Part shown: one piece after another, positions 47,271-63,588 of the stretch
Position numbering within the stretch: the first letter of the stretch is position 1
Layout of the letters: every line of letters begins with the position of its first letter
Made by a program: the position numbers and the translations under genes
From: Blastocatellia bacterium
GTDB lineage: Bacteria; Acidobacteriota; Blastocatellia; UBA7656
Reading direction: 5' to 3'
DNA length: 64,000 bases
Assembly (NCBI GenBank): GCA_963765495.1
Contig: CAVXWP010000002.1
Coordinates: 512,001 to 576,000 of the forward strand
The notes under the pieces: generated by a model
The model's input: the letters and a program-made list of their open reading frames with translations, nothing else
Database searches by the model: none
Told to the model about the DNA's origin: nothing

Positions 47271-47350
47271 GGCTTGAGCTGCATGCGTGGGAACGCGCCC
47301 GTGCAGTTCTTAGGGGAGGGGGCAGCAGCAATACTGCCTCCTTACCCGAC

Positions 47351-47806: not shown

Positions 47807-47891
47807 GCCTAACGCCGAGTTCAGCGGCGCGCTGGTAGCCGAGGGATAATGAAATGGTGGAATGCGCGTCCGCTGGAATGAGCACTTAGAC
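47807..47891 (-). repeat. attC1 (subtype A; R'' degenerate)
   Basis: gcctaacgccgagttcagcgg…ccgctggaatgagcacttagac. Confidence 0.9.
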
Positions 47892-47918
47892 GCGGTCTGC
47901 GTCTTGAGCGGAAGCTCT

Positions 47919-48359
47919 TTATTCCGTTTTCTGCTCATTGACCACCGTCTCTAACGAGCGCGTGGTGTGTTCTGTGACGCTGAACGCTGATTCAGGAAGT
48001 ACGCGATGCTTTGCCTCACTAAGCTCTTTCGCTGCTTCTTTATCAGTCTTCTTTCGACTCAATAACATCGAGACGAAAACGCCTTCGAGCCCAAGCATTA
48101 TTAGAAAACTTAGCAAGGTAATTGCGATAATCAGCCCCATATTTTCAGGTCCGAACACCATCTTCATCGCCATCATTAAGAAGATGATAGCTCCAAGGCC
48201 GAAGACGAAGACTGCTGTCATAAAAAACAGGAGCTTTTCAGACTTCACCTCTGATGCCTTGCTGACATCATCACCTTTTTCCCCACTCAGCTTAGCTCCG
48301 CAGTGGTTGCAATAGCTCAAGTTTGGTGAAACTGTCGAACCGCATTTTGAACAATACAT
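47919..48359 (-). CDS. cassette: zinc-ribbon 2-TM membrane protein
   Basis: CSKCG…CNHCG, two TMs and a C-terminal SVTEHTT. Confidence 0.8.
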   Translation of the reverse strand: MYCSKCGSTVSPNLSYCNHCGAKLSGEKGDDVSKASEVKSEKLLFFMTAVFVFGLGAIIFLMMAMKMVFGPENMGLIIAITLLSFLIMLGLEGVFVSMLLSRKKTDKEAAKELSEAKHRVLPESAFSVTEHTTRSLETVVNEQKTE

Positions 48360-48435
48360 ACTCTTCACCTCTCCGAGGCCATACGATAGGGCAAGTTGTT
48401 GTGTTCGGCAACGATGTGCTCGACCGGTGACAAGC

Positions 48436-48520
48436 GTCTAACGATGAGTTCAGCGGCGCGCTGGCAGCAACGGGAAACTGAATCATTGGAAAGCGCGTCC
48501 GCTGGAATGAGCAGTTAGGC
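48436..48520 (-). repeat. attC2 (subtype A)
   Basis: gtctaac…gttaggc palindrome. Confidence 0.9.
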
Positions 48521-48529
48521 CGAATTCAG

Positions 48530-48898
48530 TCATTTGAACTCATTGAGCCAGCGTATTTGGTTCTTCAATTCATCAACTGATAGTGAGTTCAATAACCTCA
48601 ATAATCTATGTAATAGAACGGCTACTGTTTCAGCAGTCGAAAGAATTATGCCAAAATGCTCTTTGCCTTCTTCGAGATACTTCTCGTGCAACTTAGTGAA
48701 ATCAGCAAAGTTAAAAGTGACAATCGCACGCTGTTCACTCACTGCCCAATCAAATTGGGCCTTATCATCGTCTGACAACTTTCCGGCCTCTTGAGAGGAT
48801 ACAGTATCAAAGCCATAGCGCCGAAGCTGCACAGCCAGGCGGGGTGACAGATGTTCGTTCAAATAAAGCTTTGGGGGATTATGCAACGGGTTGGGCAT
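48530..48898 (-). CDS. cassette TA: DUF5615/Mut7-like PIN toxin
   Basis: KLYLNEH…DD…RAIVTFNFADF…HFGII. Confidence 0.85.
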   Translation of the reverse strand: MPNPLHNPPKLYLNEHLSPRLAVQLRRYGFDTVSSQEAGKLSDDDKAQFDWAVSEQRAIVTFNFADFTKLHEKYLEEGKEHFGIILSTAETVAVLLHRLLRLLNSLSVDELKNQIRWLNEFK

Positions 48899-49175
48899 GA
48901 CTCTCTAACCAATGCTCATAACTGTTTTGATAACGTAGTCGATCAATTTCCTCTTGGTTGTCGTGGTAGTAAGCAAGGGCGCTGAATACCTGAGCAGGGG
49001 TCAAATAATTCCACTCAGCCAAAATCTCCTCAACTGACATCCCAGCTTTATAGTAGTAGTCAACTAAATGCCATACAGCTATCCGTGTGCCTTCTATAGT
49101 TGCTTCGCCTCCGCAGACGCCTAGAACTTTTACGACATGTGGGTAGGGAATGTAATGCATATTTTGTTCTGTCAT
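48879..49175 (-). CDS. cassette TA: DUF433 antitoxin
   Basis: GVCGGEATIEGTRIAV…ALAYYHDNQEEI. Confidence 0.9.
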   Translation of the reverse strand: MTEQNMHYIPYPHVVKVLGVCGGEATIEGTRIAVWHLVDYYYKAGMSVEEILAEWNYLTPAQVFSALAYYHDNQEEIDRLRYQNSYEHWLESHAQPVA

Positions 49176-49581
49176 AAAGTTACCTCAATTGCTTTTTCCC
49201 TGAATTGCAATATTACCACATTTACCTTCTGAGAGTCTTATTTTGATGATCAGCACGATATACTGCGAGGGCCTGCTCTGAAAATAAAAGGGGTGCTAAA
49301 TGTTGATAACGAGTAGATGAAGACAAACAACTCCGAGCCTGTGCGATATTACTTCTGCACAGCTTCATCAAACTGGTTGTCGGTAGGGCATTGGTTAATA
49401 AGCATGAGTCTGCTCTACGTGCTCAAAGGCAACAATTCGGGGTACCAGAAATATGCCCAGGTCAAACTGCTATACAGGCTCGAAGCACCAAGGACCGTTC
49501 GACCTTCATACCGACATACAAAATTCTATCATGGCTCTCACACATTTTCATCATTCGAAGGTGAGCCGCAGGCTCATGATG

Positions 49582-49667
49582 AACTAACGAGGAGATAACC
49601 GGCCCGCTGTGGCCCCCGATGCCATTGAGAAGGTGGCAAGCGCGTCCGGTTGATGGACCTGTTAGGC
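49582..49667 (-). repeat. attC3 (subtype B)
   Basis: aactaacgaggagataaccgg…ccggttgatggacctgttaggc. Confidence 0.88.
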
Positions 49668-50088
49668 GCATCTCATCTTGCAGGTTCAATAGAGATGGCC
49701 CTGTCCATATGCAAAGCCGCGCCAACAGATCGCCTCCTCTTAAGCATGATTTAAGGAGTAGCGCGGCGGACTGATTGTAACACGATAGCTGGCAGACAGG
49801 TTCTGTTTGCAATGTGGTTGACAACCAGTCAGCGATTCCCGGTTAGACCGGAATTGAAGCGAACAAAGGAGATTAGAAATCGTGAAATTGCGTTGTAATT
49901 AAGGCAATCACAGCACTTAGCGCAAAACACCGATTACATCTATCCGATTTTGCTATAACTGTTGGTACAACAGAATTTACTTTCGCAATTATCTTTTTCG
50001 CTTCCTCTTTTGATTTCATCAACTTACAACCTGACCGGGAATTGCTGACAACCAGTGTGCCTCATTTTCACGGATGGCTTTCCTGTGC
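49668..50088. other. gene-less cassette, family 1, carrying a MITE
   Basis: Homologous to 59149-59341; 194 bp after removing the MITE and one TSD. Confidence 0.85.
49830..50047. mobile_element. 218-bp MITE
   Basis: 17-bp IRs CAGCGATTCCCGGTTAG / CTGACCGGGAATTGCTG (15/17); 9-bp TSD ACAACCAGT; absent from sister cassettes. Confidence 0.85.
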
Positions 50089-50175
50089 GCTTAACGACGG
50101 AGATAACCGGCGCGCTGTGGTCTCCGCGTCATCTGAGCAGGTGGAATGCGCGTCCGGTTCATGGACCAGTTAGGC
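50089..50175 (-). repeat. attC4 (subtype B)
   Basis: gcttaac…gagataaccgg…gttaggc. Confidence 0.9.
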
Positions 50176-50462
50176 GCGCTCCGCTTTGTCGGTTCAATTC
50201 TGCACATTCTTTGAGCAGGCCGCGCTAGGAGTTCGTTGCTTTTCACCAATCGGTTTTCGAGTAATGGCTCAGTTATGCGGGGAGGAAACAGCGTAAATCC
50301 TTTATTTGCAATGAGGGCATCTCAGCTTTCCCCGCGTAACTGACCGATTACATTTTCGAGTTGCGAGGCGGAATGATTCTACCAGCAATGCTTGTAGACA
50401 GGTACTCCTTGCTTCGTCTTTGGCGATCAGTGTGGTTCGTTTTCTTGGACCACTTCCTGCGC
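50176..50462. other. gene-less cassette, divergent family 2
   Basis: No credible ORF; GCCGCGC present; ends TTCCTGCGC like family 2. Confidence 0.7.
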
Positions 50463-50548
50463 GCTTAACGCCGGGGATCAGCGGCCCGCTGTGGGCAAAG
50501 GGATAATGAGGCGGTGGCACGCGGGTCCGCTGAATGCCACGGTTAGGC
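50463..50548 (-). repeat. attC5 (variant ATCAGCGG…CCGCTGAAT)
   Basis: gcttaac…gttaggc. Confidence 0.9.
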
Positions 50549-50812
50549 GCGTTCTGATTTGTAAGTTCGTCACAGATGAAGATTCCTGTCGTTCAAGCCG
50601 CGCAAGCTTACTTTACCTTTTAGCGGGACTTTGACTCTACCCTTTCGACTAGCGCGGCGAAGTGTGAGTCTAACTCGACAGACGTAGACAGGTCATTCTA
50701 CCCTGCAATCTGACGACCAGTGTGAGTCTAACAGCACAGCTTGTAGACAGATAATATTGGCTGCGATCTTGGCGACCAGTTTGGTTAATTCTCACCGACC
50801 AATTTCCTGCGC
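50549..50812. other. gene-less cassette, family 2
   Basis: Starts GCGTTCTGATT…GTCACAGAT; homologous to 52110-52370 and 52970-53230. Confidence 0.85.
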
Positions 50813-50897
50813 GCTTAACGCCGAGTTCAGCGGCGCGCCGGTAGCTGGTGGAACACAAAACGTTGGCACGCGCGTCCGCTGGAATGAGCAGTTAGGC
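50813..50897 (-). repeat. attC6 (subtype A)
   Basis: gcttaac…gttaggc; PIN stop codon lies in R''. Confidence 0.9.
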
Positions 50898-51284
50898 TTG
50901 GTCCAATATTTTGACATCATATGCAAGTATATTACTGTCCACAGTTACCAGAGTCATATCCTTTTCCAATGCCTGGCATATCAAGATTCTATCAAACGGA
51001 TCACGATGAATCATTGGGAGGGTGGCCAGTCTTGCTACACTCCCTTCCTTCAATGGCAGACTCTCAATCTTATGTTCGTCCCTTTGCTTTGGTATGTAAC
51101 TGCCCGGAGGTTCAGGCAATGGCAGCTTCCCTATTTGATACTTGATAATTATTTCCCATAATGAAACAACGCTCAAAAACACATCATTCTCAGGGCTACG
51201 GATGGCTTCCAGAAAGGAATCTGGAAGCCGAAAATCCCCAATGATGTACCAGAGGAAAATGTGTGTATCGAGAAGGAGTTTCAT
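50892..51284 (-). CDS. vapC: cassette TA: VapC/PIN toxin
   Basis: LLLDTHIFLW, SLWEI and HRDPFDRILICQA motifs. Confidence 0.92.
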   Translation of the reverse strand: MKLLLDTHIFLWYIIGDFRLPDSFLEAIRSPENDVFLSVVSLWEIIIKYQIGKLPLPEPPGSYIPKQRDEHKIESLPLKEGSVARLATLPMIHRDPFDRILICQALEKDMTLVTVDSNILAYDVKILDQA

Positions 51285-51520
51285 CTATCTTCAAATTCTT
51301 TGATAATAGCCTCCGGCAGTGGGGCGTCGAAGTCATCAGGCACTATGAAATTCCCCGCAGCTAAAGCAAAAGGGCGAGGAGAACGAGAGGCTGAAATGAT
51401 GGGTTTGATTTCAGCAACGGGCTTACCGGCCCTAATAATAATAATACTCTCGCCAGCCTCGACACGTTCGATATAGGTCAAGAGGTTGCGCTTCATTTCA
51501 TCTATGGTAATTGGAAGCAT
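51281..51520 (-). CDS. cassette TA: Phd/YefM antitoxin
   Basis: VEAGE.III.RAGKPVA…VPDDFDAPLP. Confidence 0.88.
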   Translation of the reverse strand: MLPITIDEMKRNLLTYIERVEAGESIIIIRAGKPVAEIKPIISASRSPRPFALAAGNFIVPDDFDAPLPEAIIKEFEDR

Positions 51521-51582
51521 AGGACAATTATCAAGCAGGTTTCTCATAAAATCAAACAAGGGTATGCCGAGGTCGATGCGGA

Positions 51583-51667
51583 GCCTAACACCGAGATAAC
51601 CGGCCCGCTGTGGTCGGAGGGATAATGAATCGCTGGCACGCGGGTCCGGTTGATTGAGCGGTTAGGC
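51583..51667 (-). repeat. attC7 (subtype B; identical to attC17)
   Basis: gcctaacaccgagataaccgg…gttaggc. Confidence 0.9.
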
Positions 51668-52022
51668 GGTCCCTTGCCTGTTTCATTTCTTGCGCTTGGC
51701 TGACCCTGATCCTCCTATTTTCACTCTCACTTTCTGAGACAGCTTTTCCTGTCATTGCCAAGGAAGCAGCTTGATGTGCAAGCTTTGTCCTTCCCATTCA
51801 GGCTTCTCTACCCCTTGCCTCAACAGGTGGTTGTGCTGCGAAGGTATCTTTTCGAGGCAGCATTTTCATTGAGCCAGAGTGAATAATCCTTTGGAAGAAA
51901 CATCCTATGAAGGAACAAGAGAAGAGAGAAGCGAGCAGGTGGCTGTCCTGGCGATGACTCACCTGAGCATGTTTTTCCATCACTGTTTGGCGAGTCGTCT
52001 CCCTCTCAATCGGTGATCTGAC
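51668..52022. other. gene-less cassette, family 3
   Basis: Pyrimidine-rich left half and purine-rich right half; ends ATCGGTGATCTGAC. Confidence 0.75.
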
Positions 52023-52109
52023 GCCTAACGTCCTGGTTGAGCGGCCCGCTGTGGCATCCCCTTCATCTGAATAGTTGGCATGCGGGTCCGGTCGAACCGG
52101 TTGTTAGGC
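52023..52109 (-). repeat. attC8 (variant GGTTGA…TCGAACC)
   Basis: gcctaac…gttaggc. Confidence 0.88.
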
Positions 52110-52370
52110 GCGTTCTGATTTGCAAGTGCGTCACAGATGATTGCATTGGTTCGAGCCGCGCCTGCTTTCTTTGCCTTACAGCTGTATTTTGGCTCACCCT
52201 TTTCGAGAAGCGCGGCGGAGTGTGAGGCTAACAGCTTGGCTCATAGACAGGTCTACTTCGCTGCAATCTGACGAGCGATGTGAGTTTAAAAGCATTGCTT
52301 GTAGGCAGATATTCTTCGTCGCATCCTTGGCAATCAATGCCTCTCTTTCTCACCGACCAACTCCCGGCGC
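52110..52370. other. gene-less cassette, family 2
   Basis: 261 bp; GCCGCGC-48 nt-GCGCGGC. Confidence 0.85.
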
Positions 52371-52456
52371 GCTTAACACCGAGTTCAGCGGCGCGCCGTG
52401 GCCTCCGCTTCAACTGAGTAGCTGGAATGCGCGTCCGCTGGAATGAGCAGTTAGGC
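52371..52456 (-). repeat. attC9 (subtype A)
   Basis: gcttaac…gttaggc. Confidence 0.9.
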
Positions 52457-52882
52457 GGCTCCTTTCGGGATTCATTCATTTCCTTGGGCTTTCCTGACAG
52501 GCTTCTTCCATTTCTTATCTCCTGTTTCATCTCAGTTTCTCCTCTTGCGCGCAATTCATACCTTCTCCGCTGGGGCAGGTTTTCTTGTCGGGGAAACTGC
52601 TTGATGTGCCAAGTTCCTCCTTTCCAAACAGTCTTCTCTGGCTCTTTGCTCAACAGGTAATTGGCTGCCGGAGTATCTTTGCGAGATAGGTTTATCTTTG
52701 AGCAAGCCTGAAAAGAGAGCATCAGAAGAAAGGAGTTCAGATAAGGGAGAGTTGAGAGAAACAAACAGAGTTGAATCGGGTAAAAAGGAGCGAGAGGCGA
52801 GCAAGTAGCAGTCCTCACTATGTCTCACTCGATCATGTTTTCATATCATTGCTTGGTGAGTCGTATCGGTTGTGAGATTGAC
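52457..52882. other. gene-less cassette, family 3
   Basis: Starts GGCTCC; shares TCAACAGGT…GCTG…GTATCTTT and GAGTCGT with 51668-52022. Confidence 0.7.
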
Positions 52883-52969
52883 GCCTAACGCCGGAGATAA
52901 CCGGCGCGCTGTGGCCCCCGATGCCATCCAGAAGGTGGTATGCGCGTCCGGTTGATCGACCAGTTAGGC
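52883..52969 (-). repeat. attC10 (subtype B; same core as attC23)
   Basis: gcctaac…gttaggc. Confidence 0.9.
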
Positions 52970-53230
52970 GCGTTCTGATTCGCAAGTATGTCACAGATAA
53001 TTGCCTTCGTAATAGCCGCGCTGGCCCACTTTGCCTTTTAGCGAGGCTTTGACCTATCCTATTAAAGAAGCGCGGCGAGGTGTGAGGCTGACTCGACAGA
53101 CGAAGAGAGGTGATCGCTGGTTGCAATCTGAGGGCCAGTGAGAGTCAAACAGCACAGCTTGAAGGCAAGTATTGTCGGCTGCGATCTAAACGACCAGTGT
53201 GATTCACTCTCATCAACCAACCTCCTACGC
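52970..53230. other. gene-less cassette, family 2 (exact copy at 61141-61401)
   Basis: 261 bp; GCCGCGC-48 nt-GCGCGGC. Confidence 0.88.
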
Positions 53231-53317
53231 GCTTAACGCCCCGGTTGACCGGACCGCTGTGGCCTCCCCTTCAAGCGAGTGGTTGGCTTGCGGGTCCGGT
53301 CGAACCGGTTGTTAGAC
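53231..53317 (-). repeat. attC11 (variant like attC8)
   Basis: gcttaac…gttagac. Confidence 0.88.
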
Positions 53318-53728
53318 GCCGCTTTCAGCCATCAACGCCTTGAACCCTGCTTGCTCAAAATCTTGATCGAATGTCAGTGCTTCTGTTACTCCAGCATCCT
53401 TCATCGCTATAAATGAGATGCAGTCTATCAATCCCCAATCTTTGTCTTCGTACTTCTTGTATAGATCAAATGCCCGCTCGAACAGTTCTGTCGTGAGCCG
53501 TACTATTTGTACTTCCTCAGAGTCCAAGAAATCTTCAATGACATCGATGGCCTCTTGTTTATAATTGCGCGCTAATCCGTTCCCGATCTCAAGCAGCACC
53601 GCGTCCGTAACGAGCAATGGATTGTCCTCATATTTAGCGGCTAATTCCCCAGCCTTTGCATGGTATTGATCGCGCGGGTTGATTAAAGCGACGACGAAGA
53701 GCGTGTCAACGAAGATTCGGTTCGGCAC
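53312..53728 (-). CDS. vapC: cassette TA: VapC/PIN toxin
   Basis: IFVDT…DQYH…VLLE…DCISF…LTFDQDFEQAGF. Confidence 0.92.
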   Translation of the reverse strand: MPNRIFVDTLFVVALINPRDQYHAKAGELAAKYEDNPLLVTDAVLLEIGNGLARNYKQEAIDVIEDFLDSEEVQIVRLTTELFERAFDLYKKYEDKDWGLIDCISFIAMKDAGVTEALTFDQDFEQAGFKALMAESGV

Positions 53729-53933
53729 GTTTTTCTCCGCTCATATAGAGGTCAAAATTTGTAGAGAAGTCTTCTGGAGCATCTATCTTGATATTTCTCA
53801 GCTTTGACATGAAGCTCTGTTTCTGGTCTTGTTGCTTAGATTGAGTGAAGTCCTTCACCAGTTTATACAGTTCGTCCAAGTCCTGTTCACTGATCCGATC
53901 AATCTCAACTTGTATTAGCTCTTTCGTTGTCAT
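53706..53933 (-). CDS. cassette TA: putative antitoxin
   Basis: 75-aa ORF overlapping the PIN gene; APEDFSTNFDLY. Confidence 0.8.
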   Translation of the reverse strand: MTTKELIQVEIDRISEQDLDELYKLVKDFTQSKQQDQKQSFMSKLRNIKIDAPEDFSTNFDLYMSGEKRAEPNLR

Positions 53934-53995
53934 ACGTTGCTCCCTTCACCAACATTATTAATCATCCGGGCAATCGAGGCAACTGCACCTCAGGC

Positions 53996-54080
53996 GTCTA
54001 ACGCAGGCATCAGCGGCCCGCTAGCAGCAAAGGGATAATGAGGAGGTGGTTTGCGGGTCCGCTGGAATGAGCAGTTAGGC
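53996..54080 (-). repeat. attC12 (hybrid arms)
   Basis: gtctaacgcaggcatcagcgg…ccgctggaatgagcagttaggc. Confidence 0.9.
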
Positions 54081-55022
54081 TCTCGCACCCTCAGACTCAT
54101 CGATTTCTTTATTTTGGTTTCCTTCCCAACAGAGTGGGAGATCAAGATCATCAATAAGCGAGGGAGCATCAGGATCACCTGTTCCTATGAATATCTTACT
54201 TGGCTCCCATTCAAGCAAAACCCTCGCTATCATTCTTGTTGCTTGTGTTCTAACACTTGGCTTTTTCCTGATTAAGACATGCTCATCATAATTACTACAA
54301 GTATAGTGCAGATGCTTCCCGCATCTATGTAAATGACCTTGATATATAGTCTCCCCTTTCAGGGAAATTAAAACTGCTATTGACGGGAAGGTAGGATTAA
54401 CATAGATCGAACATTGAGAGTCACTTTCCCAAGATTCCTCTGTGAGCTTCTTTGCCATATTTTCATCAATTGTATTGCTGAGGCTCGATGAACAAGTTGG
54501 GCAATAGTCTATATCTAGCGGTTCGCTTAGTGTAATGAGCTTAATACCTTTGCCAAGCCATTCCAATTCAGACAATGCTCCATCAATCCATTGTTCGGGT
54601 GGTCCGCTTGCCACAAGATGGTAAACTCGCTCAAATTCGATCTTTTGATTCTGCCACTGAAGGATTAGCCTCATTGAGTGAATCTGTGAATGAGTACCAT
54701 AGAGATTCAAGACAGCCAATATTTTGGGGCTAGGCTTCGCTGCTTCCTCAACGAATGCCTCCCAGGATTTCTTAAACTCAAGGATACGGTCAGCGCCCAA
54801 TTCAATATGATTACTTGTGTAAGCTCCTGGCCTATGATGGGCATCGTGGTCCTTAACGCAAAGCACAGCCAAATTAGGATCAACCGTATTTGATGCATCA
54901 CCATCAATATGATGAATGTTTAGCCCGATCCCTCGTTGCTTACAAACACAACATGCATTCGCATTTCGTTTTAGCAAATGTTCTCTTTGTTTTGTAGTTG
55001 GATCAACTCGTTTTCTAGACAT
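54075..55022 (-). CDS. cassette: N-terminal HNH nuclease-like protein
   Basis: CCVCK…IHHIDGDASN…NLAVLCVKDH; stop codon in R''. Confidence 0.8.
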   Translation of the reverse strand: MSRKRVDPTTKQREHLLKRNANACCVCKQRGIGLNIHHIDGDASNTVDPNLAVLCVKDHDAHHRPGAYTSNHIELGADRILEFKKSWEAFVEEAAKPSPKILAVLNLYGTHSQIHSMRLILQWQNQKIEFERVYHLVASGPPEQWIDGALSELEWLGKGIKLITLSEPLDIDYCPTCSSSLSNTIDENMAKKLTEESWESDSQCSIYVNPTFPSIAVLISLKGETIYQGHLHRCGKHLHYTCSNYDEHVLIRKKPSVRTQATRMIARVLLEWEPSKIFIGTGDPDAPSLIDDLDLPLCWEGNQNKEIDESEGARA

Positions 55023-55198
55023 ACTTCTGAAAACTTGCGACTCCTTTGGAATTGAGCCCAACGGCCCAATTGATGTGCGAACGAGCAATTATTGTACGTA
55101 GAATAGGCGAGATAATCCATCGTACATGGTCACGTGGGGTTGAAAAAATAAATTTGCTTTGGATTATGCTTACCAGTGTTTGCGATGTTTCAGCGTGA

Positions 55199-55284
55199 GC
55201 CTAACGCCGAGTTCAGCGGCGCGCTGTGGGCTTCGATGCAAGCGAACAGTTGGCACGCGCGTCCGCTGGAATGAGCAGTTAGGC
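55199..55284 (-). repeat. attC13 (subtype A)
   Basis: gcctaac…gttaggc. Confidence 0.9.
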
Positions 55285-55400
55285 CGAATACATCAAATAG
55301 CCTGAGAGGCCCTTCTTCGCTAGGTTCAAGAAGTTCAACGAGGGTCACAGCATTACATCTAGCATAGACGACCGCACTCCTAATCTTACGGACATTGCTT

Positions 55401-56258
55401 TTAAGCTTCGATGCCCGAGTGTTTTAATAATCCTCGATGAATGCGGTCATGCCGCTTATTCGATAATTCAATGTATTTTTCCAACCCATTTAGGCCAATT
55501 ATGTCGATCCGATAGGATGATCGAGTGTACGATCTGGACTTAAAATGAAACTTCATTGGAGCCATCTCGATTTCAGCTATATCTATTTCTCCTTGTTCAC
55601 TCAAATCTGCTGCCAGAAGGATACCATCCAGAATAACAATTGGCTTTACAAAAACTAAGTATGGTGGATTGCTGAATACATCTATTACCTTCTCTACCCC
55701 TTCCAATTTGGGCCAAGACTCTGCCTTAAGAGCATGCTCGGCAGCCTTACAAACGGATACACATGCCGAATACCATTGCGAGGGGCTATTAGGATTCTTA
55801 AAGCTCTCGTGAATCCCATACCCATTCCATTTCAATTGCGAGATCAGTGATTCTGAAGTCATATAATCATAAAGAATGCGCGGATCAAAAGGTAAATTGT
55901 CATAAAACGTCAAATTGTTCCATGCATCACCAGTTCGTAATGGCGTATCGGACAGATCCTCCCTGAAGATTACCTAAGGTTTCTCGGATTTCTTGACCTC
56001 TGCAACTATGTGATACCAACTTTGGATAAGCTTCTTATCATCAAGCTTGTGCATTAACATTCTGTGTGCTTGCAAATCACATTCTCTCGTCTTCTGTTCA
56101 TCTTTATCAAAGTAATTGAGGGTTCCTGAACAAGACCATTCTTTGGCAAGAAAGGTTCTTATTACTCTCATTTCAGAACCAAATCCAGATTTTTCCAAGT
56201 CTTTAATCACACTTTGTTTAAAGGCATTGTTCATAAAACCCATTCTACCAGTATCCAT
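55401..56258 (-). pseudogene. cassette: PD-(D/E)xK-like protein broken by an in-frame TAG
   Basis: SGFGSE…RECDL…AEVKKSEKP*VIF; both ORF halves in frame, joined by 20 sense codons. Confidence 0.7.
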
Positions 56259-56271
56259 TTGAATCGTTTAG

Positions 56272-56357
56272 GCCTAACACCGAATTCAGCGGCGCGCTGT
56301 GGCTCACGATGCAATCGAGGGGGTGGCAAGCGCGTCCGCTGGAATGAGCAGTTAGGC
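56272..56357 (-). repeat. attC14 (subtype A)
   Basis: gcctaac…gttaggc. Confidence 0.9.
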
Positions 56358-56361
56358 TCAG

Positions 56362-56691
56362 TTAGGGGGCGAACATCTCTGTTAATACTGTCAAAACATC
56401 TGATTCTATTTTCCTGTTAACCTTCCCTAATTTTCTTACGAGTCTTACTTTGTCAACAGTCCGAATCTGATCCAATACGATTTGGCCTTTTTTGCCTTGG
56501 AATGTCAAAGCAACTCTCGTTGGGTAGCTTCTTCCTTTCGTTGTCATTGGAGCCACAATCACAGTGTTAATATGTCTATTCATTTCATCAGGGGAAATGA
56601 TTAAACAAGGCCGTGTCTTCTTAATCTCACTGCCAATTGTAGGATCAAGATTGATGAGATAGACTTCAAATCTCCTGACTACCATTGCCAC
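56362..56691 (-). CDS. mazF: cassette TA: MazF/PemK toxin
   Basis: LDPTIGSEIKKTRPCLIISP…DQIRTVDKVRL. Confidence 0.93.
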   Translation of the reverse strand: MAMVVRRFEVYLINLDPTIGSEIKKTRPCLIISPDEMNRHINTVIVAPMTTKGRSYPTRVALTFQGKKGQIVLDQIRTVDKVRLVRKLGKVNRKIESDVLTVLTEMFAP

Positions 56692-56933
56692 TCTTCTTCA
56701 TCCCATTTAGTTGAGTTAGGAAAATAGTCATCAACAGATGAATCATCCTGATTTTCAGTCATAGTTTGAAAGGCTTGATCCCAAACATGCCTGGGATGCT
56801 GAGCAGATCGAATAATAATTTGATTGTCGAGTGCCTCAAGGTCAACCTCATCAGTAATGTTACTCTGTTCCAAGAGTAACTTTGGGATGCGAATACCTTG
56901 GGAATTACCAATTTTTATAATACGAGATTTCAT
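56679..56933 (-). CDS. mazE: cassette TA: MazE/AbrB antitoxin
   Basis: IIKIGNSQGIRIPK…WDEEEWQW. Confidence 0.92.
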   Translation of the reverse strand: MKSRIIKIGNSQGIRIPKLLLEQSNITDEVDLEALDNQIIIRSAQHPRHVWDQAFQTMTENQDDSSVDDYFPNSTKWDEEEWQW

Positions 56934-57006
56934 AAGCACAATGTAATTACGAAGAGGCCAATAAGTCAAGTAAGAAAAGCAAGCGAGTTCCAGTAGACAA
57001 GTGCGA

Positions 57007-57091
57007 GCCTAACGCCGAGTTCAGCGGCGCGCTGTGGTTGGAGGGATAATGAAACATTGGTATGCGCGTCCGCTGGAATGAGCAGTTAGGC
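57007..57091 (-). repeat. attC15 (subtype A)
   Basis: gcctaac…gttaggc. Confidence 0.9.
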
Positions 57092-57122
57092 CGGTTTGCA
57101 AGGCTCATTTGTTGTATCGCTA

Positions 57123-57551
57123 TCAAAGTGCAAAAGGATTGGTTATCTTTAGCCGATTCTCTATTATCATTCCTCCACTCATATCTTCTGTGTACAGCAT
57201 CTCTGCTGCTCCCAACAGCGCACTTGAAACGATGAGGCTGTCCCAAAAAGAAAACTGCAACTTCTCCCGTAGCTCTGAACCCTTCAACAATATGCTTCTG
57301 TCCATAACAACGACATCGTATTTATTATAGAAAGAGATGATGAGTGGTTGAAGACGTTGTTCATCGAATTGAGCTTTCTTGATGAGGTTGACACATATCT
57401 CATTAATGACTTGAGTGCTGACGATTATGTCGTTTTGTTGAATTATTGTTTTTGCAATAACTGATTTGTTCAGGTCTTGACCAGGAATAAAAGCATATAG
57501 CCAAATATTGGTATCAATAAAACATAAGGGTGTAGGACTAAGGTTGCTCAT
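57123..57551 (-). CDS. cassette TA: PIN-domain toxin
   Basis: FIDTNIWLY, STQVINE, FWDSLIV, LYTEDM and NPF motifs. Confidence 0.9.
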   Translation of the reverse strand: MSNLSPTPLCFIDTNIWLYAFIPGQDLNKSVIAKTIIQQNDIIVSTQVINEICVNLIKKAQFDEQRLQPLIISFYNKYDVVVMDRSILLKGSELREKLQFSFWDSLIVSSALLGAAEMLYTEDMSGGMIIENRLKITNPFAL

Positions 57552-57750
57552 AAATCTCTTCTCTCGCAAGAGGGCTGAATCCTTCAATGTTGAGGGGGTG
57601 AGCTAGAAGGTGTTCGATCATATCAAAATTTTCAGAGTTGTCTTCTGTAAGAAGAATGACCCGCACAACACCTTTGAACCTATCCCTGTGTTCTTCAGGA
57701 ATAGTGATATTTCCGTCTCTTACTCTCGTTTGAAACTCAATTGCATTCAT
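57538..57750 (-). CDS. cassette TA: putative antitoxin
   Basis: AIEFQT…GNITIP…VRVILL…REEIYE; overlaps the PIN gene. Confidence 0.8.
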   Translation of the reverse strand: MNAIEFQTRVRDGNITIPEEHRDRFKGVVRVILLTEDNSENFDMIEHLLAHPLNIEGFSPLAREEIYEQP

Positions 57751-57784
57751 AACTTAATTCCCTTCAATCTCTCTGCAATAAGAC

Positions 57785-57884
57785 AATGAAGCTCCTCGCA
57801 GCAAGCTGCGAGGTATCGCGCAAGAGGGGAGGAAATGGAGCCGCAGCAAGCTGCGGGGAATTGCCTGACCCTCCTCAGATTAAA
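57785..57884. mobile_element. REP/IS200-like double-hairpin mini-element
   Basis: CCTCGCAGCAAGCTGCGAGG (57794-57813) and CCGCAGCAAGCTGCGG (57841-57856). Confidence 0.6.
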
Positions 57885-57913
57885 GCGTCGAGCGTACTAG
57901 GTCAAGTGCGAGG

Positions 57914-57998
57914 GCCTAACGACGAGTTCAGCGGCGCGCCGGTACCAATGGGATATTGAAACGTTGGCAAGCGCGTCCGCTGGAATGAGCAGTTAGGC
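57914..57998 (-). repeat. attC16 (subtype A)
   Basis: gcctaac…gttaggc. Confidence 0.9.
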
Positions 57999-58134
57999 TT
58001 GCCCCCGATAAGCAGCTAGTGCCATTTCAACAAAGCAATCCATTTTCTACTCAGTCCGATTTCAAAAGCGATATTGGGAAGGCAAAACAGCTTTCTTGCC
58101 ATACTACGATGGGGGGCAAAACGAGATGGTAGCG

Positions 58135-58440
58135 TTAGGAGTAGTCGGGTACATAGCAAAAGTATTTCGCTCTCCCAGTACCCTGACATCTGGAACAAGC
58201 TAAAACGGCTCGTTTATCCATTCCGCTGGGATACTGCCCTATTACCGGCCCAGCGACTGTCCGACTCCCATTGCAGGCATCGCATTGTCCCTCATACTCA
58301 AATCTCTTCACCTGCCCAGTGCCGCCACACTGTTGACATATCCGTGTGGCAGAGCGGTATCCACTCTTCTCGAATCCAGCATCGTAGGATTCTGTGTATG
58401 TTTCCTTGCCCGAACCGCTACATTTATCACAGATCGTCAT
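58135..58440 (-). CDS. cassette: stand-alone DnaJ-type zinc-finger protein
   Basis: CDKCSGSG, CQQCGGTG, CDACNGS and CSRCQGTG; GGAGG RBS. Confidence 0.8.
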   Translation of the reverse strand: MTICDKCSGSGKETYTESYDAGFEKSGYRSATRICQQCGGTGQVKRFEYEGQCDACNGSRTVAGPVIGQYPSGMDKRAVLACSRCQGTGRAKYFCYVPDYS

Positions 58441-58624
58441 AAACGAAAGCACCTCCGTTTCGAGAAATGTGTCACTTCGGAACTAACTCCAAAGCAGTTG
58501 CCCTAAAGAACAAAGATGTTATGTAAAATGGGAGAGATTTTCAATTTGAAACAACAGCCAATCCTCATAAAAATAGAGCTGATGCTGCATTATCCATACA
58601 AAGAATTTCAGAGTAACAATGAGA

Positions 58625-58709
58625 GCCTAACACCGAGATAACCGGCCCGCTGTGGTCGGAGGGATAATGAATCGCTGGCACGCGGGTCCGGTTGATTGAG
58701 CGGTTAGGC
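58625..58709 (-). repeat. attC17 (subtype B)
   Basis: Identical to attC7. Confidence 0.9.
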
Positions 58710-59063
58710 GGTCCCTTGCCTGTTTCATTTCTTGCGCTTGGCTGACCCTGATCCTCCTATTTTCACTCTCACTTTCTGAGACAGCTTTTCCTGTCATTGC
58801 CAAGGAAGCAGCTTGATGTGCAAGCTTTGTCCTTCCCATTCAGGCTTCTCTACCCCTTGCCTCAACAGGTGGTTGTGCTGCGAAGGTATCTTTTCGAGGC
58901 AGCATTTTCATTGAGCCAGAGTGAATAATCCTTTGGAAGAAACATCCTATGAAGGAACAAGAGAAGAGAGAAGCGAGCAAGAGGCTCTCCTCGCTATGAC
59001 TCGCCTGAACTGGTTTTCGTAGCGTTGCTTGTTGAGTCGTTTCCCTTTCATCGGTGATCTAAC
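58710..59063. other. gene-less cassette, family 3 (partial exact copy of 51668-52022)
   Basis: Identical up to 58979, diverged afterwards. Confidence 0.8.
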
Positions 59064-59148
59064 GCCTAACGCCGAGATAACCGGCGCGCTGTGGTCGGAG
59101 GGATAATGAGGCGTTGGAATGCGGGTCCGGTTGATGGACCAGTTAGGC
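59064..59148 (-). repeat. attC18 (subtype B)
   Basis: gcctaac…gttaggc. Confidence 0.9.
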
Positions 59149-59341
59149 GCATTCCACCTTGAAGGTTCGGTAAAGATACCACTGTCGAAATGCCAAGCCG
59201 CGCCAACAGATAGCTTCGACTCAACCGGAATTTATCGGGTAGCGCGGCGCAGTGATTGTGTCAGTACACTTTGTAGACATGTAGTCTGATTGCTTGGTTG
59301 ACGATCAGTGTAGCTCATTATCACGGATCGCTTCCCTGTGC
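59149..59341. other. gene-less cassette, family 1
   Basis: 193 bp; GCCGCGC-38 nt-GCGCGGC. Confidence 0.85.
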
Positions 59342-59426
59342 GCTTAACGCAGGCATCAGCGGCCCGCTGTGGTGAAAGGGAAAATGAGGAGTTGGCAAGC
59401 GGGTCCGCTGAATGCCTCAGTTAGGC
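59342..59426 (-). repeat. attC19 (variant like attC5)
   Basis: gcttaac…gttaggc. Confidence 0.9.
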
Positions 59427-59494
59427 CCGACTCTGAGTCTGCATCGCTATGCGTGTTCACAGGTATGTGTTCATAACCACTTCTTACTGTAACG

Positions 59495-60004
59495 TCAAAC
59501 TCCTGTGACATCTGATAGCACTGTTGGTCGCCCGTCACCTTTCATTTCCACTATGCTTAAACTTCCATCCGTTTCAAGTACTACTGCTTCGACCTCCTCT
59601 TCTCCTTTTATGCCTTGACTGCGGATCGCTTGAAGTATCTCCCCTTCGTTCACTCGCTCCGCTTTCATCGCACTCCTAAGAAATACTCCTCGATGAAATA
59701 GTAACTTCGGCTCTGACTTGACCAACTTGCTTATTGTCTTTGAACGAATTGAAAGCCAGGTGATTATGAATTGAAGAAATATCAACAAGGAAAGAGCCAG
59801 CAATCCTTCTGCAAGTGGAGTATTCTTGGAGAGAATGATTGTGGCTAAAATTGACCCCAAGGCAACTGTCACTACGAAGTCAAAGGCATTCATTTTAGAA
59901 AGAGTTCGTTTGCCAGAAATGCGGAGTAATAGGATAAGAGTAGGATAGGTGCAGATGGTGGCAACAGCAATTCGTGCCAACCCAGACCAGCTAGTGAAGA
60001 ACAT
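59495..60004 (-). CDS. cassette: DUF421/YetF membrane protein
   Basis: LRISGKRTLSKMNAFDF…VVLETDGSLS. Confidence 0.9.
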   Translation of the reverse strand: MFFTSWSGLARIAVATICTYPTLILLLRISGKRTLSKMNAFDFVVTVALGSILATIILSKNTPLAEGLLALSLLIFLQFIITWLSIRSKTISKLVKSEPKLLFHRGVFLRSAMKAERVNEGEILQAIRSQGIKGEEEVEAVVLETDGSLSIVEMKGDGRPTVLSDVTGV

Positions 60005-60068
60005 ATCAACTCCCCGAGTAAATTGAACAAGCGTCTTGAGAGATTATACATGACAGGAAACATTTTGG

Positions 60069-60155
60069 GCTTAACGCCGGAGATAACCGGCCCGCTGTGG
60101 CCCCCGATGCCATTGAGAAGGTGGCAAGCGCGTCCGGTTCATGGACCTGTTAGGC
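60069..60155 (-). repeat. attC20 (subtype B; near-identical to attC3)
   Basis: gcttaac…gttaggc. Confidence 0.9.
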
Positions 60156-60347
60156 GCATTCTACCTTGCAGGTTCATTACAGTTGGGCTTGTCTCACATC
60201 AAGCCGCGCTGATAGTTTGCTTCCCGTTGACCAATAAATCACAAATAGCGCGGCGCGGTGATTGTGTCAATACTGTTGGCAGACAGGTGATCTGATTGCT
60301 CCGTTTACGATCAGTGTCGCTCATTTTCACGGATGGCTTTCCTGTGC
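60156..60347. other. gene-less cassette, family 1
   Basis: 192 bp; GCCGCGC-38 nt-GCGCGGC. Confidence 0.85.
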
Positions 60348-60432
60348 GCCTAACACCGAGATAACCGGCCCGCTGTGGGCTCAGGGATAACGAGAAGTTG
60401 GTTTGCGGGTCCGGTTGATCGACTTGTTAGGC
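60348..60432 (-). repeat. attC21 (subtype B)
   Basis: gcctaac…gttaggc. Confidence 0.9.
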
Positions 60433-60772
60433 GGCTCCCCTTGCTGATTTATCTCTTCGCCTTCGCTCGTTTTCATCTTCCAATCCTCTTCCTCCCTTCT
60501 CTTTGCAGTTTCTTCCTGACTGCTTAAAAGCTGTTTGCCTGGTCGAAAGCTTCCTTCCCAAGCAGGTCTGCTTTGGCCAAGGCTTATCAGGCAAACTGGC
60601 TTGAAGAGGCTCTTTGGCAAATAACCCAGAGACAGAGCATAGCTGAAAGCACTGCATTGTAGAAGTGTGAGCCTGATGAAGGCGAGAAGATTGATCGTTC
60701 TCGGCAGTGACTCCATAACAGGTCTTTTTGGCATCGCTTGATGAGCCGTTTCCTCTCTATCGATATTCTGAC
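60433..60772. other. gene-less cassette, family 3
   Basis: Starts GGCTCCC; pyrimidine-rich left half; ends ATCGATATTCTGAC. Confidence 0.7.
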
Positions 60773-60859
60773 GCCTAACGCCGGAGATAACCGGCGCGCT
60801 GTGGCCTGCAATGCAAGCGAGACATTGGTATGCGCGTCCGGTTGATGGACCAGTTAGGC
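60773..60859 (-). repeat. attC22 (subtype B)
   Basis: gcctaac…gttaggc. Confidence 0.9.
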
Positions 60860-61053
60860 GCATTCCACCTTGTAGGTTCAATAGAGTTACTCGTTCCCCT
60901 CTGCCAAGGCGCGCCCAGTGTTGATTTGCTTTTCAATCAGCAAATATAGGAGGGCGCGGCGGACTGATTGTGTCAGCACTGTTGGCAGGCAATTAGTCTG
61001 ATTGCTTCATAGACGAGTAGTATGCCTCTTTTTCACGGATGGCTTTCCTGTGC
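60860..61053. other. gene-less cassette, family 1
   Basis: 194 bp; stem variant CGCGCCC/GGGCGCG. Confidence 0.85.
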
Positions 61054-61140
61054 GCTTAACGCCGGAGATAACCGGCGCGCTGTGGCCCCCGATGCCATCC
61101 AGAAGGTGGTATGCGCGTCCGGTTGATCGACCAGTTAGGC
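61054..61140 (-). repeat. attC23 (subtype B)
   Basis: Core identical to attC10. Confidence 0.9.
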
Positions 61141-61401
61141 GCGTTCTGATTCGCAAGTATGTCACAGATAATTGCCTTCGTAATAGCCGCGCTGGCCCAC
61201 TTTGCCTTTTAGCGAGGCTTTGACCTATCCTATTAAAGAAGCGCGGCGAGGTGTGAGGCTGACTCGACAGACGAAGAGAGGTGATCGCTGGTTGCAATCT
61301 GAGGGCCAGTGAGAGTCAAACAGCACAGCTTGAAGGCAAGTATTGTCGGCTGCGATCTAAACGACCAGTGTGATTCACTCTCATCAACCAACCTCCTACG
61401 C
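61141..61401. other. gene-less cassette, family 2 (duplicate)
   Basis: Identical to 52970-53230. Confidence 0.88.
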
Positions 61402-61486
61402 GCTTAACGACGAGTTCAGCGGCGCGCCGGTAGCTGATGGAACGCGAGCAGTTGGAATGCGCGTCCGCTGGAATGAGCAGTTAGGC
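61402..61486 (-). repeat. attC24 (subtype A)
   Basis: gcttaac…gttaggc, abutting the IS4. Confidence 0.9.
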
Positions 61487-61487
61487 T

Positions 61488-62971
61488 CAATACCTGTCAA
61501 ATAAGCCACGAGACGGCATTTATGGCATACTTTCGAGTTGATAGAAACGAAAGTTGTCAAGGAGCCGCCTCGCTTGAGTTACAAAATACGCCATATTACC
61601 GATGAACGAAAGTTCTGTGATCATCTCTCTATTGATGCCATCTCTGATGCCGTCTCTATTGAATTAATCCAAGAGGTTCTTGATCTCCACAATGCCTCTC
61701 ACAAACGACATCGCAAACTCACTATGAGCGCTGTCGTGCTCATTATCATCGCTATGAATCTGTTTTCACATTTCTCTATTGGACATGTCGTGCGGAGAGT
61801 CTTTCAGGGTTTGCGTTTCATCTGGCCTGATCCTGACTTTCCTCCTCCTAAACACAATGCAATATCTTATCGTCGTTACCAGTTGGGGCCTCGTCCTTTA
61901 GTCTCATTGTTTCATCGTGTTGCACAACCTATGGCAACAGATGAAACTCGTGGCGCTTTTGCATTTGGACTGCGATTAATGGCCCTTGACGGCTCTATTG
62001 AAGAAGCCCCGGACACTCCGGAAAATGATGCTGCTTTTGGGCGGTTGGCTTCTGATCGCGGGAAGTGTTGCTTCGTGCAAATTCAGGCTGTCTACCTTGT
62101 AGAATGTGGCACTCATGCCATTATTGATGCAGGATTTTGGCCTGCAAAAAGCAGTGAACGAGTTGGAGGTTTTCGCCTGCTAAGAAGCCTGGGAAAAGGG
62201 ATGCTTTTGATGTGGGATAGAGGCTTTCACTCCTATGATATGGTAGTTGCGACACTTGAGCGAGGGTCTCAATGTCTTGGTAGATTGCCTGACAATGTGA
62301 AACCGGAACACCTTTGCACGCTAGAAGATGGAACGTGGTTAGGCTATATCAGACCAACACAAAAAGGACGGCGAAATAAAGAAGACAAACAGTTGGTTCG
62401 GATAATCTCTTACACTTTTACAGACCCGACCCAAGCAGGATACCAGAAGAGATACCGCATAGTCACAACACTATTGGATGAAAGGAAGTATCCGGCCAAA
62501 GAGTTGGTGTGTTTGTATCACGAGCGATGGGAAATCGAGATAGTCATAGATGAGATAGATACACATCAACGACTAGCAGGAAGGCCATTGAGAAGCCTAA
62601 AACCAGAGGGAGTCATACAAGAGTTATACGCATTATTGATAGCGCATTATGCAGTAAGAAAACTGATACACGAAGCAGCAAATGAGGCAGAAGTAGACCC
62701 GGATCGGATAAGTTTTGTAGGAGCATTGAGGATAATCCAAGAAGCAATACCAGAATTCCAAATGGTAGAAAAGGAGCAAAAGGAGCAATTATACAAGAGG
62801 CTATTGAGAGATATAGGAGAGCAAAGGTTACCAGAAAGGCGAGCCAGATCGAATCCGCGAGTAGTGAAGAGAAAGATGAGTGGGTTCAATCTGAAGCGAC
62901 CACAGCATTACAACTGGCCCAAGCCACAGCTACGATTTTGTGATGCTATTTTGCTTATTTGACAGGTATTG
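61488..62971 (+). mobile_element. IS4-family insertion sequence (IS4Sa-like, 1484 bp)
   Basis: Perfect 19-bp IR CAATACCTGTCAAATAAGC; 10-bp TSD CAGTTAGGCT (61478-87, 62972-81). Confidence 0.95.
61538..62962 (+). CDS. IS4-family DDE transposase
   Basis: ALDGS, WDRGF, YHERWEIE (YREK-like) and PRVVKR motifs; start codon uncertain. Confidence 0.93.
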   Translation: MIETKVVKEPPRLSYKIRHITDERKFCDHLSIDAISDAVSIELIQEVLDLHNASHKRHRKLTMSAVVLIIIAMNLFSHFSIGHVVRRVFQGLRFIWPDPDFPPPKHNAISYRRYQLGPRPLVSLFHRVAQPMATDETRGAFAFGLRLMALDGSIEEAPDTPENDAAFGRLASDRGKCCFVQIQAVYLVECGTHAIIDAGFWPAKSSERVGGFRLLRSLGKGMLLMWDRGFHSYDMVVATLERGSQCLGRLPDNVKPEHLCTLEDGTWLGYIRPTQKGRRNKEDKQLVRIISYTFTDPTQAGYQKRYRIVTTLLDERKYPAKELVCLYHERWEIEIVIDEIDTHQRLAGRPLRSLKPEGVIQELYALLIAHYAVRKLIHEAANEAEVDPDRISFVGALRIIQEAIPEFQMVEKEQKEQLYKRLLRDIGEQRLPERRARSNPRVVKRKMSGFNLKRPQHYNWPKPQLRFCDAILLI

Positions 62972-62974
62972 CAG

Positions 62975-63214
62975 TTAGGCTGCCTCCAAAACCTTCTTGG
63001 CTACGTCTTTTCCGGCCGTTGGTGGAGGCAAAGGTCTTCCATCTCTTTTCAATAAATCAATCCATTCATCCACAATCTGACATAGTTCTGCAAATACCTG
63101 CGCTTCATCGTTTCCATGACAACAGGGACCTATGATTCCTGGGCATTGCCCCACAAAACAATTGTCTTCATCTGACCATTCAACAATCTTGATATAGCGG
63201 GCGCTTTCTTTCAT
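62975..63214 (-). CDS. hicB: cassette TA: HicB-like antitoxin
   Basis: IVEWSDED…CPGI…HG…GRPLPPP. Confidence 0.85.
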   Translation of the reverse strand: MKESARYIKIVEWSDEDNCFVGQCPGIIGPCCHGNDEAQVFAELCQIVDEWIDLLKRDGRPLPPPTAGKDVAKKVLEAA

Positions 63215-63405
63215 TGCTGTGCCTCTTGAATCTTTTTTTTCACCTCACGTTCCTGATAAGGTTTTGCATCATCGCCAAGCTGACCAGAAACTGTAAGACG
63301 AACACCTTTTGGATGCTCATAATTTCTATGACTGCCTTTACCACCTCGATTGACAAACCCTGCTCTTTCCAAATCGCCGATCAATTCTCTGATTTTACGA
63401 GGCAT
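63211..63405 (-). CDS. hicA: cassette TA: HicA toxin
   Basis: LERAGF…GKGSHRNYEHP. Confidence 0.9.
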   Translation of the reverse strand: MPRKIRELIGDLERAGFVNRGGKGSHRNYEHPKGVRLTVSGQLGDDAKPYQEREVKKKIQEAQQ

Positions 63406-63588
63406 AATCGCGTCTATGCTCTTGCAAATCCTTTCTTTCCATCACGGATATTTTTATCAACATTGCTAAACCGCTAACCCAGCCAAAACAAAGAGCAAGC
63501 TATTCTCTAACCCTGTTATGGTGACAAAGAAATACTCGCATTGTCAATCGTCCTTCTGGTTCAATTCTGGCGGCTGGTGAGCGAGCGA

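Follow-up and report, generated by a model that had tools for sequence, protein, structure and literature searches.

What keeps an inverted pair of GC-only heptamers at an almost unvarying distance inside cassettes that appear to carry no gene? The question is raised by a stretch of 64,000 nucleotides (nt) from a Blastocatellia genome, here called the window (G000:C2:512001-576000, where G000 denotes the genome). From about 47.8 kilobases (kb) to its end, the window is occupied by a very large integron cassette array, and in many of its cassettes GCCGCGC is followed, after 38 or 48 nt, by GCGCGGC. An earlier note on this DNA had described these pairs and suggested that they are two phased DNA-binding sites, with a closing RNA stem or a relic attC-like hairpin as alternatives. 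We find that the pair, which we call the clamp, is real: it is the invariant block shared by three paralogous cassette families without open reading frames (ORFs), and it recurs, around promoter-like sequences, in cassettes of another genus. Its role in mobile promoter cassettes is probably one of control or of folding.

An inverted GC pair shared by gene-less cassettes

Exact matches to GCCGCGC-N(30-55)-GCGCGGC number seven in the window against an expectation of 0.07, and none of 100 shuffles reached seven. Three have a 38-nt spacer and four a 48-nt spacer (Table 1). All the exact pairs listed in the earlier note are among them, together with one at 61186 that it had not listed and that lies inside the range it had given. 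Its 39-nt case at 60908/60954 is also genuine: the left arm on the + strand reads GGCGCGC there, and the stem has moved inward to 7 base pairs (bp), CGCGCCC/GGGCGCG (60910-60916/60952-60958). The next inner pair is T-A at 60203 and C-G at 60908, just as the note had read them.

In the window we delimited 25 attC sites (47807-63673) by their RYYYAAC/GTTRRRY cores and by extrahelical bases on the bottom strand. The sites are 85-87 nt long, with cores GCCTAAC...GTTAGGC. Their 3' arm on the + strand has one additional T and one additional G relative to the 5' arm, which identifies the + strand as the bottom strand that recombines and the minus strand as the one on which the cassettes are read. The coding cassettes agree with this orientation, their ORFs being on the minus strand and stopping beside attC. 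Because the cassettes are read on the minus strand, the R'' end nearest the clamp belongs to the attC of the same cassette. The distance of 45-48 nt from that end, given in the earlier note, holds for 8 of 8 intact window copies; it does not hold for family C (below), in which the clamp stands only 15 nt from attC, so the geometry is not universal. The short motif that the note had seen before GCTTAAC is present and corresponds to the first ~10 nt of the cassette in its true orientation, where its GC prolongs the attC R-box stem to CGCCTAAC/GTTAGGCG.

Three integron integrases are encoded elsewhere in G000 (TIGR02249 matches above the cut-off, 475-487 bits), and more than 200 attC sites of the window type are found on eight of its contigs. 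The window array reaches the end of its contig, in an orientation that fits continuation into a contig starting with cassettes and followed by attI and intI. Cassette orientation matches the position of intI, and in two G000 integrons the attI junctions lead straight into family B cassettes.

Clustering of the 195 cassettes that we delimited genome-wide in G000 gave five large families with no conserved ORF. The clamp is present in families A (~190 nt, 32 copies), B (~261 nt, 13 copies), and C (~177 nt, 14 copies) and absent from D (353-437 nt, 30 copies) and E (338-363 nt, 9 copies). Families A to E account for 98 of the 195 cassettes, and A, B, and C for 59. The paralogues share no start-to-stop frame, differing by 1-nt insertions or deletions (indels) and having no ATG frames in common, and they were compared at the nucleotide level only; stop-free stretches of 37-64 codons occur in single copies. 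Across all G000 arrays, gene-less cassettes of families A, B, C, and E mostly have attC sites of the CCGGTTGAT type, and 53 of the 86 cassettes outside the five families have CCGCTGGAATGAGCA-type sites. Judged by these distinct subtypes, the gene-less families may have had a separate origin, as the attC sequences suggest.

Cassettes of A, B, and C move as single units, have been strongly amplified, and are enriched beside attI. Array maps place them in varied neighbourhoods and in shuffled orders, and single hairpin variants occur in up to 10 identical copies (10, 9, 8, and 8). Among the first 12 positions after three attI sites, 10 are taken by A, B, or C, compared with 59 of 195 positions overall. 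Within G000 these families are confined to the arrays. Neither D nor E is favoured as the next cassette (12 cases observed, 10.5 expected from shuffles).

We aligned the 20 unique G000 copies of the clamp with 25 nt on either side. The columns conserved at ≥90% are only the 14 arm columns and one G in the loop, and mean column identity is 60%. The covariation check that the earlier note had proposed for the stem came out negative: none of the seven arm pairs shows a compensated change in the 20 unique G000 variants, nor does any in 19 unique variants from the second genus described below. Arm variation in G000 is limited to one copy with a U-G pair and two variants with a C-C mismatch, both of which acquire inner C-G pairs and so retain a stem of 6-7 bp. 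By comparison, 6 of 21 pairs in the attC stems of this genome have undergone compensated changes. The arms have none, which argues that the arms are constrained in sequence and not by pairing alone.

The distance between the arms is similarly restricted. The unique hairpins of G000 cassettes of ≤470 nt comprise fifteen with a 38-nt loop, one with 39 nt (8 copies), one with 45 nt (a single copy with a changed arm), and three with 48 nt; further forms with loop insertions have loops of 122 and 137 nt. Inside the G000 arrays, exact arms are 38 nt apart in 44 cases, 48 nt in 16, and 52 nt in one. Outside the arrays there are 64 exact-arm matches, whose spacers cover 20-70 nt at roughly one match for each length. 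A covariance model of the clamp with 25-nt flanks recognises 72 copies in G000. Within family A the loop evolves rapidly, with a mean pairwise identity of 0.58 compared to 0.74 and 0.68 for the two flanks.

The consensus fold of the 20 unique copies is the 7-bp helix and nothing else. The loops are unfolded relative to shuffled loops (mean z of +0.38 for the top strand and +0.15 for the bottom strand, n=20), and RNA folding of whole family A and B cassettes on both strands is not better than that of shuffles (z of -0.81, 0.06, -0.02, and -0.17). A DNA fold of attC-cassette-attC gives a z of -3.56, which reflects the attC hairpins.

The same arms in a second genus

Integron integrases are present in 35 of the 52 genomes that we compared from the same family. 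BLAST with the cassettes found a homologue in 0 of 60 relatives, and the covariance model gave two weak off-array hits in the 52 genomes, probably due to chance. The model missed one genome, G036, because the flanks differ there. G036 belongs to another genus, and in its array, beside intI, are short cassettes without ORFs whose arms are identical to those of G000 and stand 38 nt apart. Exact arms around 38 nt occur 47 times in G000 (control, 0) and 56 times in G036 (control, 1), and the counts in the other 51 genomes of the family are near the control. Among 401 genomes of the class, a sample that takes in three unpublished genomes with background counts, only G000 and G036 stand out against the control. 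In the 183 kb of G036 arrays, the spacer between exact arms is 38 nt in 35 cases and 37 nt in two, and all 37 copies of the family that are recognised by a profile have exact arms. The fixed geometry described in the earlier note thus reaches well past the window. The module being carried by two genomes only, the histogram of spacer lengths that the note had suggested covers few independent lineages. The flanks of A, B, C, and the G036 family are mutually unalignable, and the distance from clamp to attC is 43-49 nt in family A, 15 nt in family C, and 35 nt in the G036 family.

The 38 nt of G036 have a regular layout. In the 17 unique loops they consist of 5 nt, TTGACW, 17 variable nt, TATNTT, and 4 nt, with a -35 block that reads TTGACT in 13 loops, TTGACA in three, and TAGACA in one, and a -10 block that reads TATTTT in eight and TATGTT in five, along with four single variants. 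The 17-nt spacers between the hexamers include 12 different sequences. An independent promoter scan flagged four of the six hairpins at positions 11000-19500 of one G036 locus (L211, G036:C7:2195321-2215320). The extrahelical T of attC is on the other strand and intI lies upstream, which puts the promoter-like sequence in sense orientation. On this evidence the 38 nt correspond to a near-consensus sigma-70-like promoter predicted to point towards attC and the cassette beyond it. Between the left arm and the -35 box lie 5 nt, and between the -10 box and the right arm 4 nt, so that, at the usual distance of about 7 nt, the right arm would lie over the expected start site. The 17-nt spacing rule of promoters explains much of the fixed spacer length in G036. 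Where the downstream neighbour of a G036 clamp cassette could be delimited, it was in 8 of 12 cases a larger cassette with its longest open frame on the top strand; these cassettes were delimited with a crude attC finder that catches 13 of 37 copies, and the finder versions made for the relatives still miss sites. Loops in G000 resemble those of G036 in their arms, their length, and part of the sequence close to the right arm, but they lack the hexamers.

The clamp of G036 is nested in an outer inverted repeat, ACGCCNCCGCGC/GCGCGGNGGCGT, which has several uncompensated mismatches.

G036 also has a second ORF-less family, of 203 nt, with examples at 12597-12799, 14711-14913, and 15017-15219 of the same locus. 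Its first ~15 nt and its attC type are common to it and the clamp family, and it has a long-range GC-rich inverted repeat, CGCCGCCGCGCCGC...GCGGCGCGGCGG, around ~110 nt. Repeated 65-nt matches at 4472, 7285, 13305, 14347, and 17241 of the locus are the front halves of the longer attC of these two families. Simple finders overlook this attC, which ends in GTTATAC, because of the weaker pairing of its cores.

Two duplex sites or a folded strand

We favour, with a probability of roughly 40%, a module in which the clamp brackets the promoter of a mobile promoter cassette and the arms act as an operator pair for a protein, held at a fixed distance on duplex DNA. The module of 52 nt (62 nt in family B) would be the core that A, B, and C share, and the arms would be sequence-specific sites for one protein that contacts both. 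One site would cover the start site and discriminator and the other would lie just upstream of the -35 box. The 48-nt form would add about one helical turn, which would leave both sites in phase, and in G000 the arms and spacing would have been kept and the hexamers not. We favour a protein at two duplex sites because the arms are fixed while the attC stems covary, because the spacing is kept across unrelated flanks, and because in G036 the sites sit at both edges of the core promoter. A constraint on length is argued from the families, which have unlike flanks and attC distances and nonetheless all keep 38 nt. A further reading, of low probability, is that a dedicated regulator binding the clamp around dozens of mobile promoter cassettes would switch a whole array on or off as a regulon of mobile promoters, with the promoter-less copies of G000 serving as decoys or silent spares.

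A number of observations weigh against the operator pair. The half-sites are 45 bp apart from centre to centre, which is unusual for one regulator. The G000 loops contain no recognisable promoter, so an operator would bracket none there: a promoter consensus scan found no site in any window hairpin, and the -35/-10 matrix from G036, applied to both strands of 15 G000 loops and shifted by up to 3 nt, scored within the range of shuffles (fraction at or above the observed score, 0.14-0.91). In the changed-arm variant (8 + 1 copies) the stem moves inward and still measures 6-7 bp, as a constraint on pairing predicts, and the second inverted repeat around the G036 clamp would be more readily expected of a folded strand. 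Family A has one gap run in its 39 loop columns and eight in 143 flank columns; the loop is thus not short of indels relative to the flanks, and within one family the conserved length amounts to no more than a general scarcity of indels. Family B equals family A plus 10 nt in mid-loop, a single event. The proposal of two phased sites in the earlier note therefore stands in part: the sequence-fixed arms fit two sites, and the 10-nt difference, though one event, fits helical phasing. Among the genes next to intI we found no convincing candidate for a regulator.

Nearly as likely as the operator pair, though still doubtful, is that the arms pair within a single strand to form a 7-bp GC stem with an unstructured loop of 38 or 48 nt beside the attC hairpin. 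The strand could be bottom-strand DNA, in a lagging-strand template or an excised circle, or RNA from read-through of Pc, and the stem-loop would either help the cassette to spread, by protecting it, by priming, or by assisting its folding, or have its effect on the transcript. The arms do form a perfect inverted pair that the consensus fold returns alone, the stem relocates inward when its outer pair is broken, a second conserved inverted repeat surrounds the G036 clamp, and the integron system itself operates through hairpins of single-stranded DNA. Three C-to-T changes in the 5' arms (h17; c12/c18; c13) give T-G wobbles on the top strand. The cassettes are, moreover, short, amplified, and enriched beside attI, and short cassettes are excised more often in some contexts, according to one report (PMC5371416). 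A pairing function is nonetheless hard to reconcile with 39 unique variants from two genera that do not covary, though attC stems do so in the same genome, and it does not account for the strict loop length of 38 nt seen across families. In G036 the outer helix has its uncompensated mismatches, and neither strand is favoured, the mean hairpin energy being about -17.9 kcal/mol on both (20 values). A transcript from the promoter enclosed in G036 would be without the left arm, and attC folding is no stronger in A, B, and C than elsewhere (-16.0 to -20.8 versus -19.6 kcal/mol). As a further single-stranded reading, improbable in our estimate, the GC stem would present the variable unpaired loop of a small RNA for pairing with targets, different loops giving different specificities. 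Loops that evolve faster than their flanks and are on average less structured than shuffles, in cassettes close to Pc, would suit such RNAs. However, Rfam has no match, no terminator follows the stem, the loops match the rest of the genome no better than shuffles and nothing in plasmid or phage collections, and the loop in G036 is promoter-like rather than guide-like.

The relic or accessory attC-like hairpin of the earlier note, which the integron integrase would recognise, has become very improbable. The clamp is a GC-rich inverted repeat near attC, and the apical stem of the G036 attC, GCCGCG...CGCGGC with 31-33 nt between the halves, has six letters in common with the arms; yet a profile of 179 G000 attC sites matches nothing in A, B, or C at expectation values (E) up to 10, the alignments have no R''/R' cores, L boxes, or extrahelical bases around the pair, and no cassette boundary coincides with it. 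We give equally little credence to the possibility that the arms are functionless and have been carried along by a recent selfish amplification of short cassettes. The many identical copies and the confinement to arrays would agree with this, and spread of the kind has been proposed for paralogous non-coding cassettes of Vibrio (PMC1382264). The arms have, however, stayed invariant while the loops drop to 58% identity and the flanks of the four families can no longer be aligned, and identical arms and spacing are found in two genera.

Other candidates found no support. The segment between the arms never occurs in both orientations, which speaks against an invertible promoter (inverton): all 20 unique G000 copies and all 36 G036 copies tested have a single orientation relative to their flanks. 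The loop of 38 or 48 nt and the lack of a T run after the stem do not fit an intrinsic terminator, and a terminator scan returned none formed by the two arms; the only site it listed in contact with an arm is an unrelated short stem (- strand, 49718-49697). Our results agree with the earlier note that the spacers are not of the CRISPR (clustered regularly interspaced short palindromic repeats) kind: the loops are homologous to one another, and against the rest of G000 they match nothing above shuffled loops (the best exact match was 16 nt, and shuffled loops scored up to 36.2 bits).

Wider searches gave little. Rfam has no match in the region at the gathering score, and up to an E of 5 it returned only two chance snoRNA (small nucleolar RNA) hits elsewhere. 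The cassettes have no match in plasmid or phage collections. A pattern scan of public genome contigs returned random GC-rich matches, none resembling the families among the matches listed, and a scan of metagenome contigs with a strict pattern gave 3 chance matches. The literature that we searched describes no such clamp, any gene-less cassette sequences in the supplements of the cited papers lying outside the comparison.

Window features and comparison with known systems

Table 1. Clamp modules, the cassettes that carry them, and an attC example in the window
Feature	Coordinates	Strand	Details
Clamp module, family A (7-nt arm, 38-nt spacer, 7-nt arm)	59197..59248		Exact match; variant h10, 10 identical genome copies, among the most frequent
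Clamp module, family A, 38 nt	49716..49767		Exact match; variant h12
Clamp module, family A, 38 nt	60203..60254		Exact match; eighth pair T-A
Clamp module, family A variant, nominal 39-nt spacer	60908..60960		One changed arm; variant h16, 8 copies genome-wide
Clamp module, family A, with ~90-nt loop insertion	50219..50369		137-nt loop; left arm 50219-50225, right arm altered to GCGAGGC, 50363-50369
Clamp module, family B, 48 nt	50597..50658		Exact match
Clamp module, family B, 48 nt	52155..52216		Exact match
Clamp module, family B, 48 nt	53015..53076		Exact match
Clamp module, family B, 48 nt	61186..61247		Exact match; hairpin sequence identical to the 53015 copy
Gene-less cassette, family A, 193 nt between attC sites	59149..59341	-	Own attC 59064-59148
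Gene-less cassette, family A, 192 nt	60156..60347	-	attC delimitation and clustering
Gene-less cassette, family A, 194 nt	60860..61053	-	attC delimitation and clustering
Family A cassette with ~220-nt element inserted	49668..50088	-	Alignment
Family A cassette with loop insertion	50176..50462	-	Alignment
Gene-less cassette, family B, 264 nt	50549..50812	-	Internal tandem duplication of ~57-nt unit; alignment
Gene-less cassette, family B, 261 nt	52110..52370	-	attC delimitation and clustering
Gene-less cassette, family B, 261 nt	52970..53230	-	attC delimitation and clustering
Gene-less cassette, family B, 261 nt	61141..61401	-	attC delimitation and clustering
attC example	59064..59148	-	+ strand is the recombining bottom strand; extrahelical T and G in its 3' arm

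Two of the family A cassettes in Table 1 contain inserted sequence. In the cassette at 50176-50462, the ~90-nt insertion in mid-loop (50261-50351) has its own 23-nt inverted repeat (50261-50283/50329-50351, 87% complementary), and a duplicated loop segment apparently flanks it. In the cassette at 49668-50088, the ~220-nt element at ~49828-50048 has 99% identical off-array copies at G000 C14:59044-59262, C16:5634-5851, and C16:374426-374645, and it may be a small non-autonomous mobile element. Families D (51668-52022, 52457-52882, and 58710-59063) and E (60433-60772) are represented in the window by paralogous ORF-less cassettes with one end that is purine-rich on the + strand; neither family matches an Rfam family.

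Near the end of the window, a 2.1-kb "cassette" (61487-63588) with GTTAGGC on both sides (61480 and 62974) contains an ORF of 474 amino acids (61538-62962, +). Its sequence looks like an insertion sequence within an attC site, and G000 has a second copy of similar size (family F10). Just outside the array are matches to group II introns (RF02012 at 42633-42745; RF00029 at 46178-46278 and 47274-47350) and two ORFs resembling reverse transcriptases (44499-46175 and 46239-47270). The frame upstream of 42600 appears to resume after 47350, as if one or more introns interrupted a transposase-like gene.

Operator pairs that flank a promoter, as in the repressor-controlled class, are identical inverted half-sites at the edges of the core promoter, a fixed distance apart. 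Compared with these, the clamp has an unusually wide separation of 45 bp, its sites are GC-only, and its regulator is postulated. With attC the clamp has in common an imperfect hairpin-type inverted repeat with a variable centre and an occurrence in the same arrays. It differs in having no R or L boxes, no extrahelical bases, and no profile similarity, and in a stem that never covaries whereas the attC stems do.

Large chromosomal integrons are regarded as gene stores that stay largely silent, and gene-less promoter cassettes have recently been shown to wake parts of a Vibrio array. Here, a soil acidobacterium gives about half of its cassettes to gene-less families, three of which share a clamp with a 56-copy family of another genus. 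Were the clamp a control site, a single factor could coordinate the expression of a cassette array; were it an element of the folded strand, it would be a second kind of functional cassette hairpin beside attC.

The closest known parallels are in Vibrio, where paralogous non-coding cassette families make up 6-49% of the arrays, with up to 45 copies, and where a selfish or a regulatory role has been suggested (Boucher et al. 2006, PMC1382264). Those families resemble ours in being ORF-less, attC-bounded, highly paralogous within an array, limited to close relatives, and conserved enough to imply selection, and in taking a large share of the array (here 98 of 195 cassettes in five families). The present host, however, is of a different phylum, and three of its families carry one invariant 7-bp inverted GC pair at a spacing of 38 or 48 nt, of which we noticed no counterpart in the accessible text on Vibrio.

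Promoter activity in the sense orientation has been reported for most of 29 Vibrio gene-less cassettes (10.1101/2023.11.21.568050), and gene-less cassettes with promoter activity are reportedly known from Treponema as well (PMC6557892). The G036 family is similar in that its gene-less cassettes have a putative sense -35 box, 17 nt, and a -10 box, often upstream of coding cassettes; in the G000 copies no such pair of boxes, at a spacing of 16-18 nt, was found. It differs from those cassettes in that its promoter is predicted from sequence and is bracketed by an invariant inverted repeat, in one family of at least 56 copies. Paralogous gene-less cassettes and promoter cassettes were thus already known; the new feature is the inverted GC pair, which is invariant, keeps its distance, and recurs in several families and two genera, in one of which it surrounds a promoter-like sequence.

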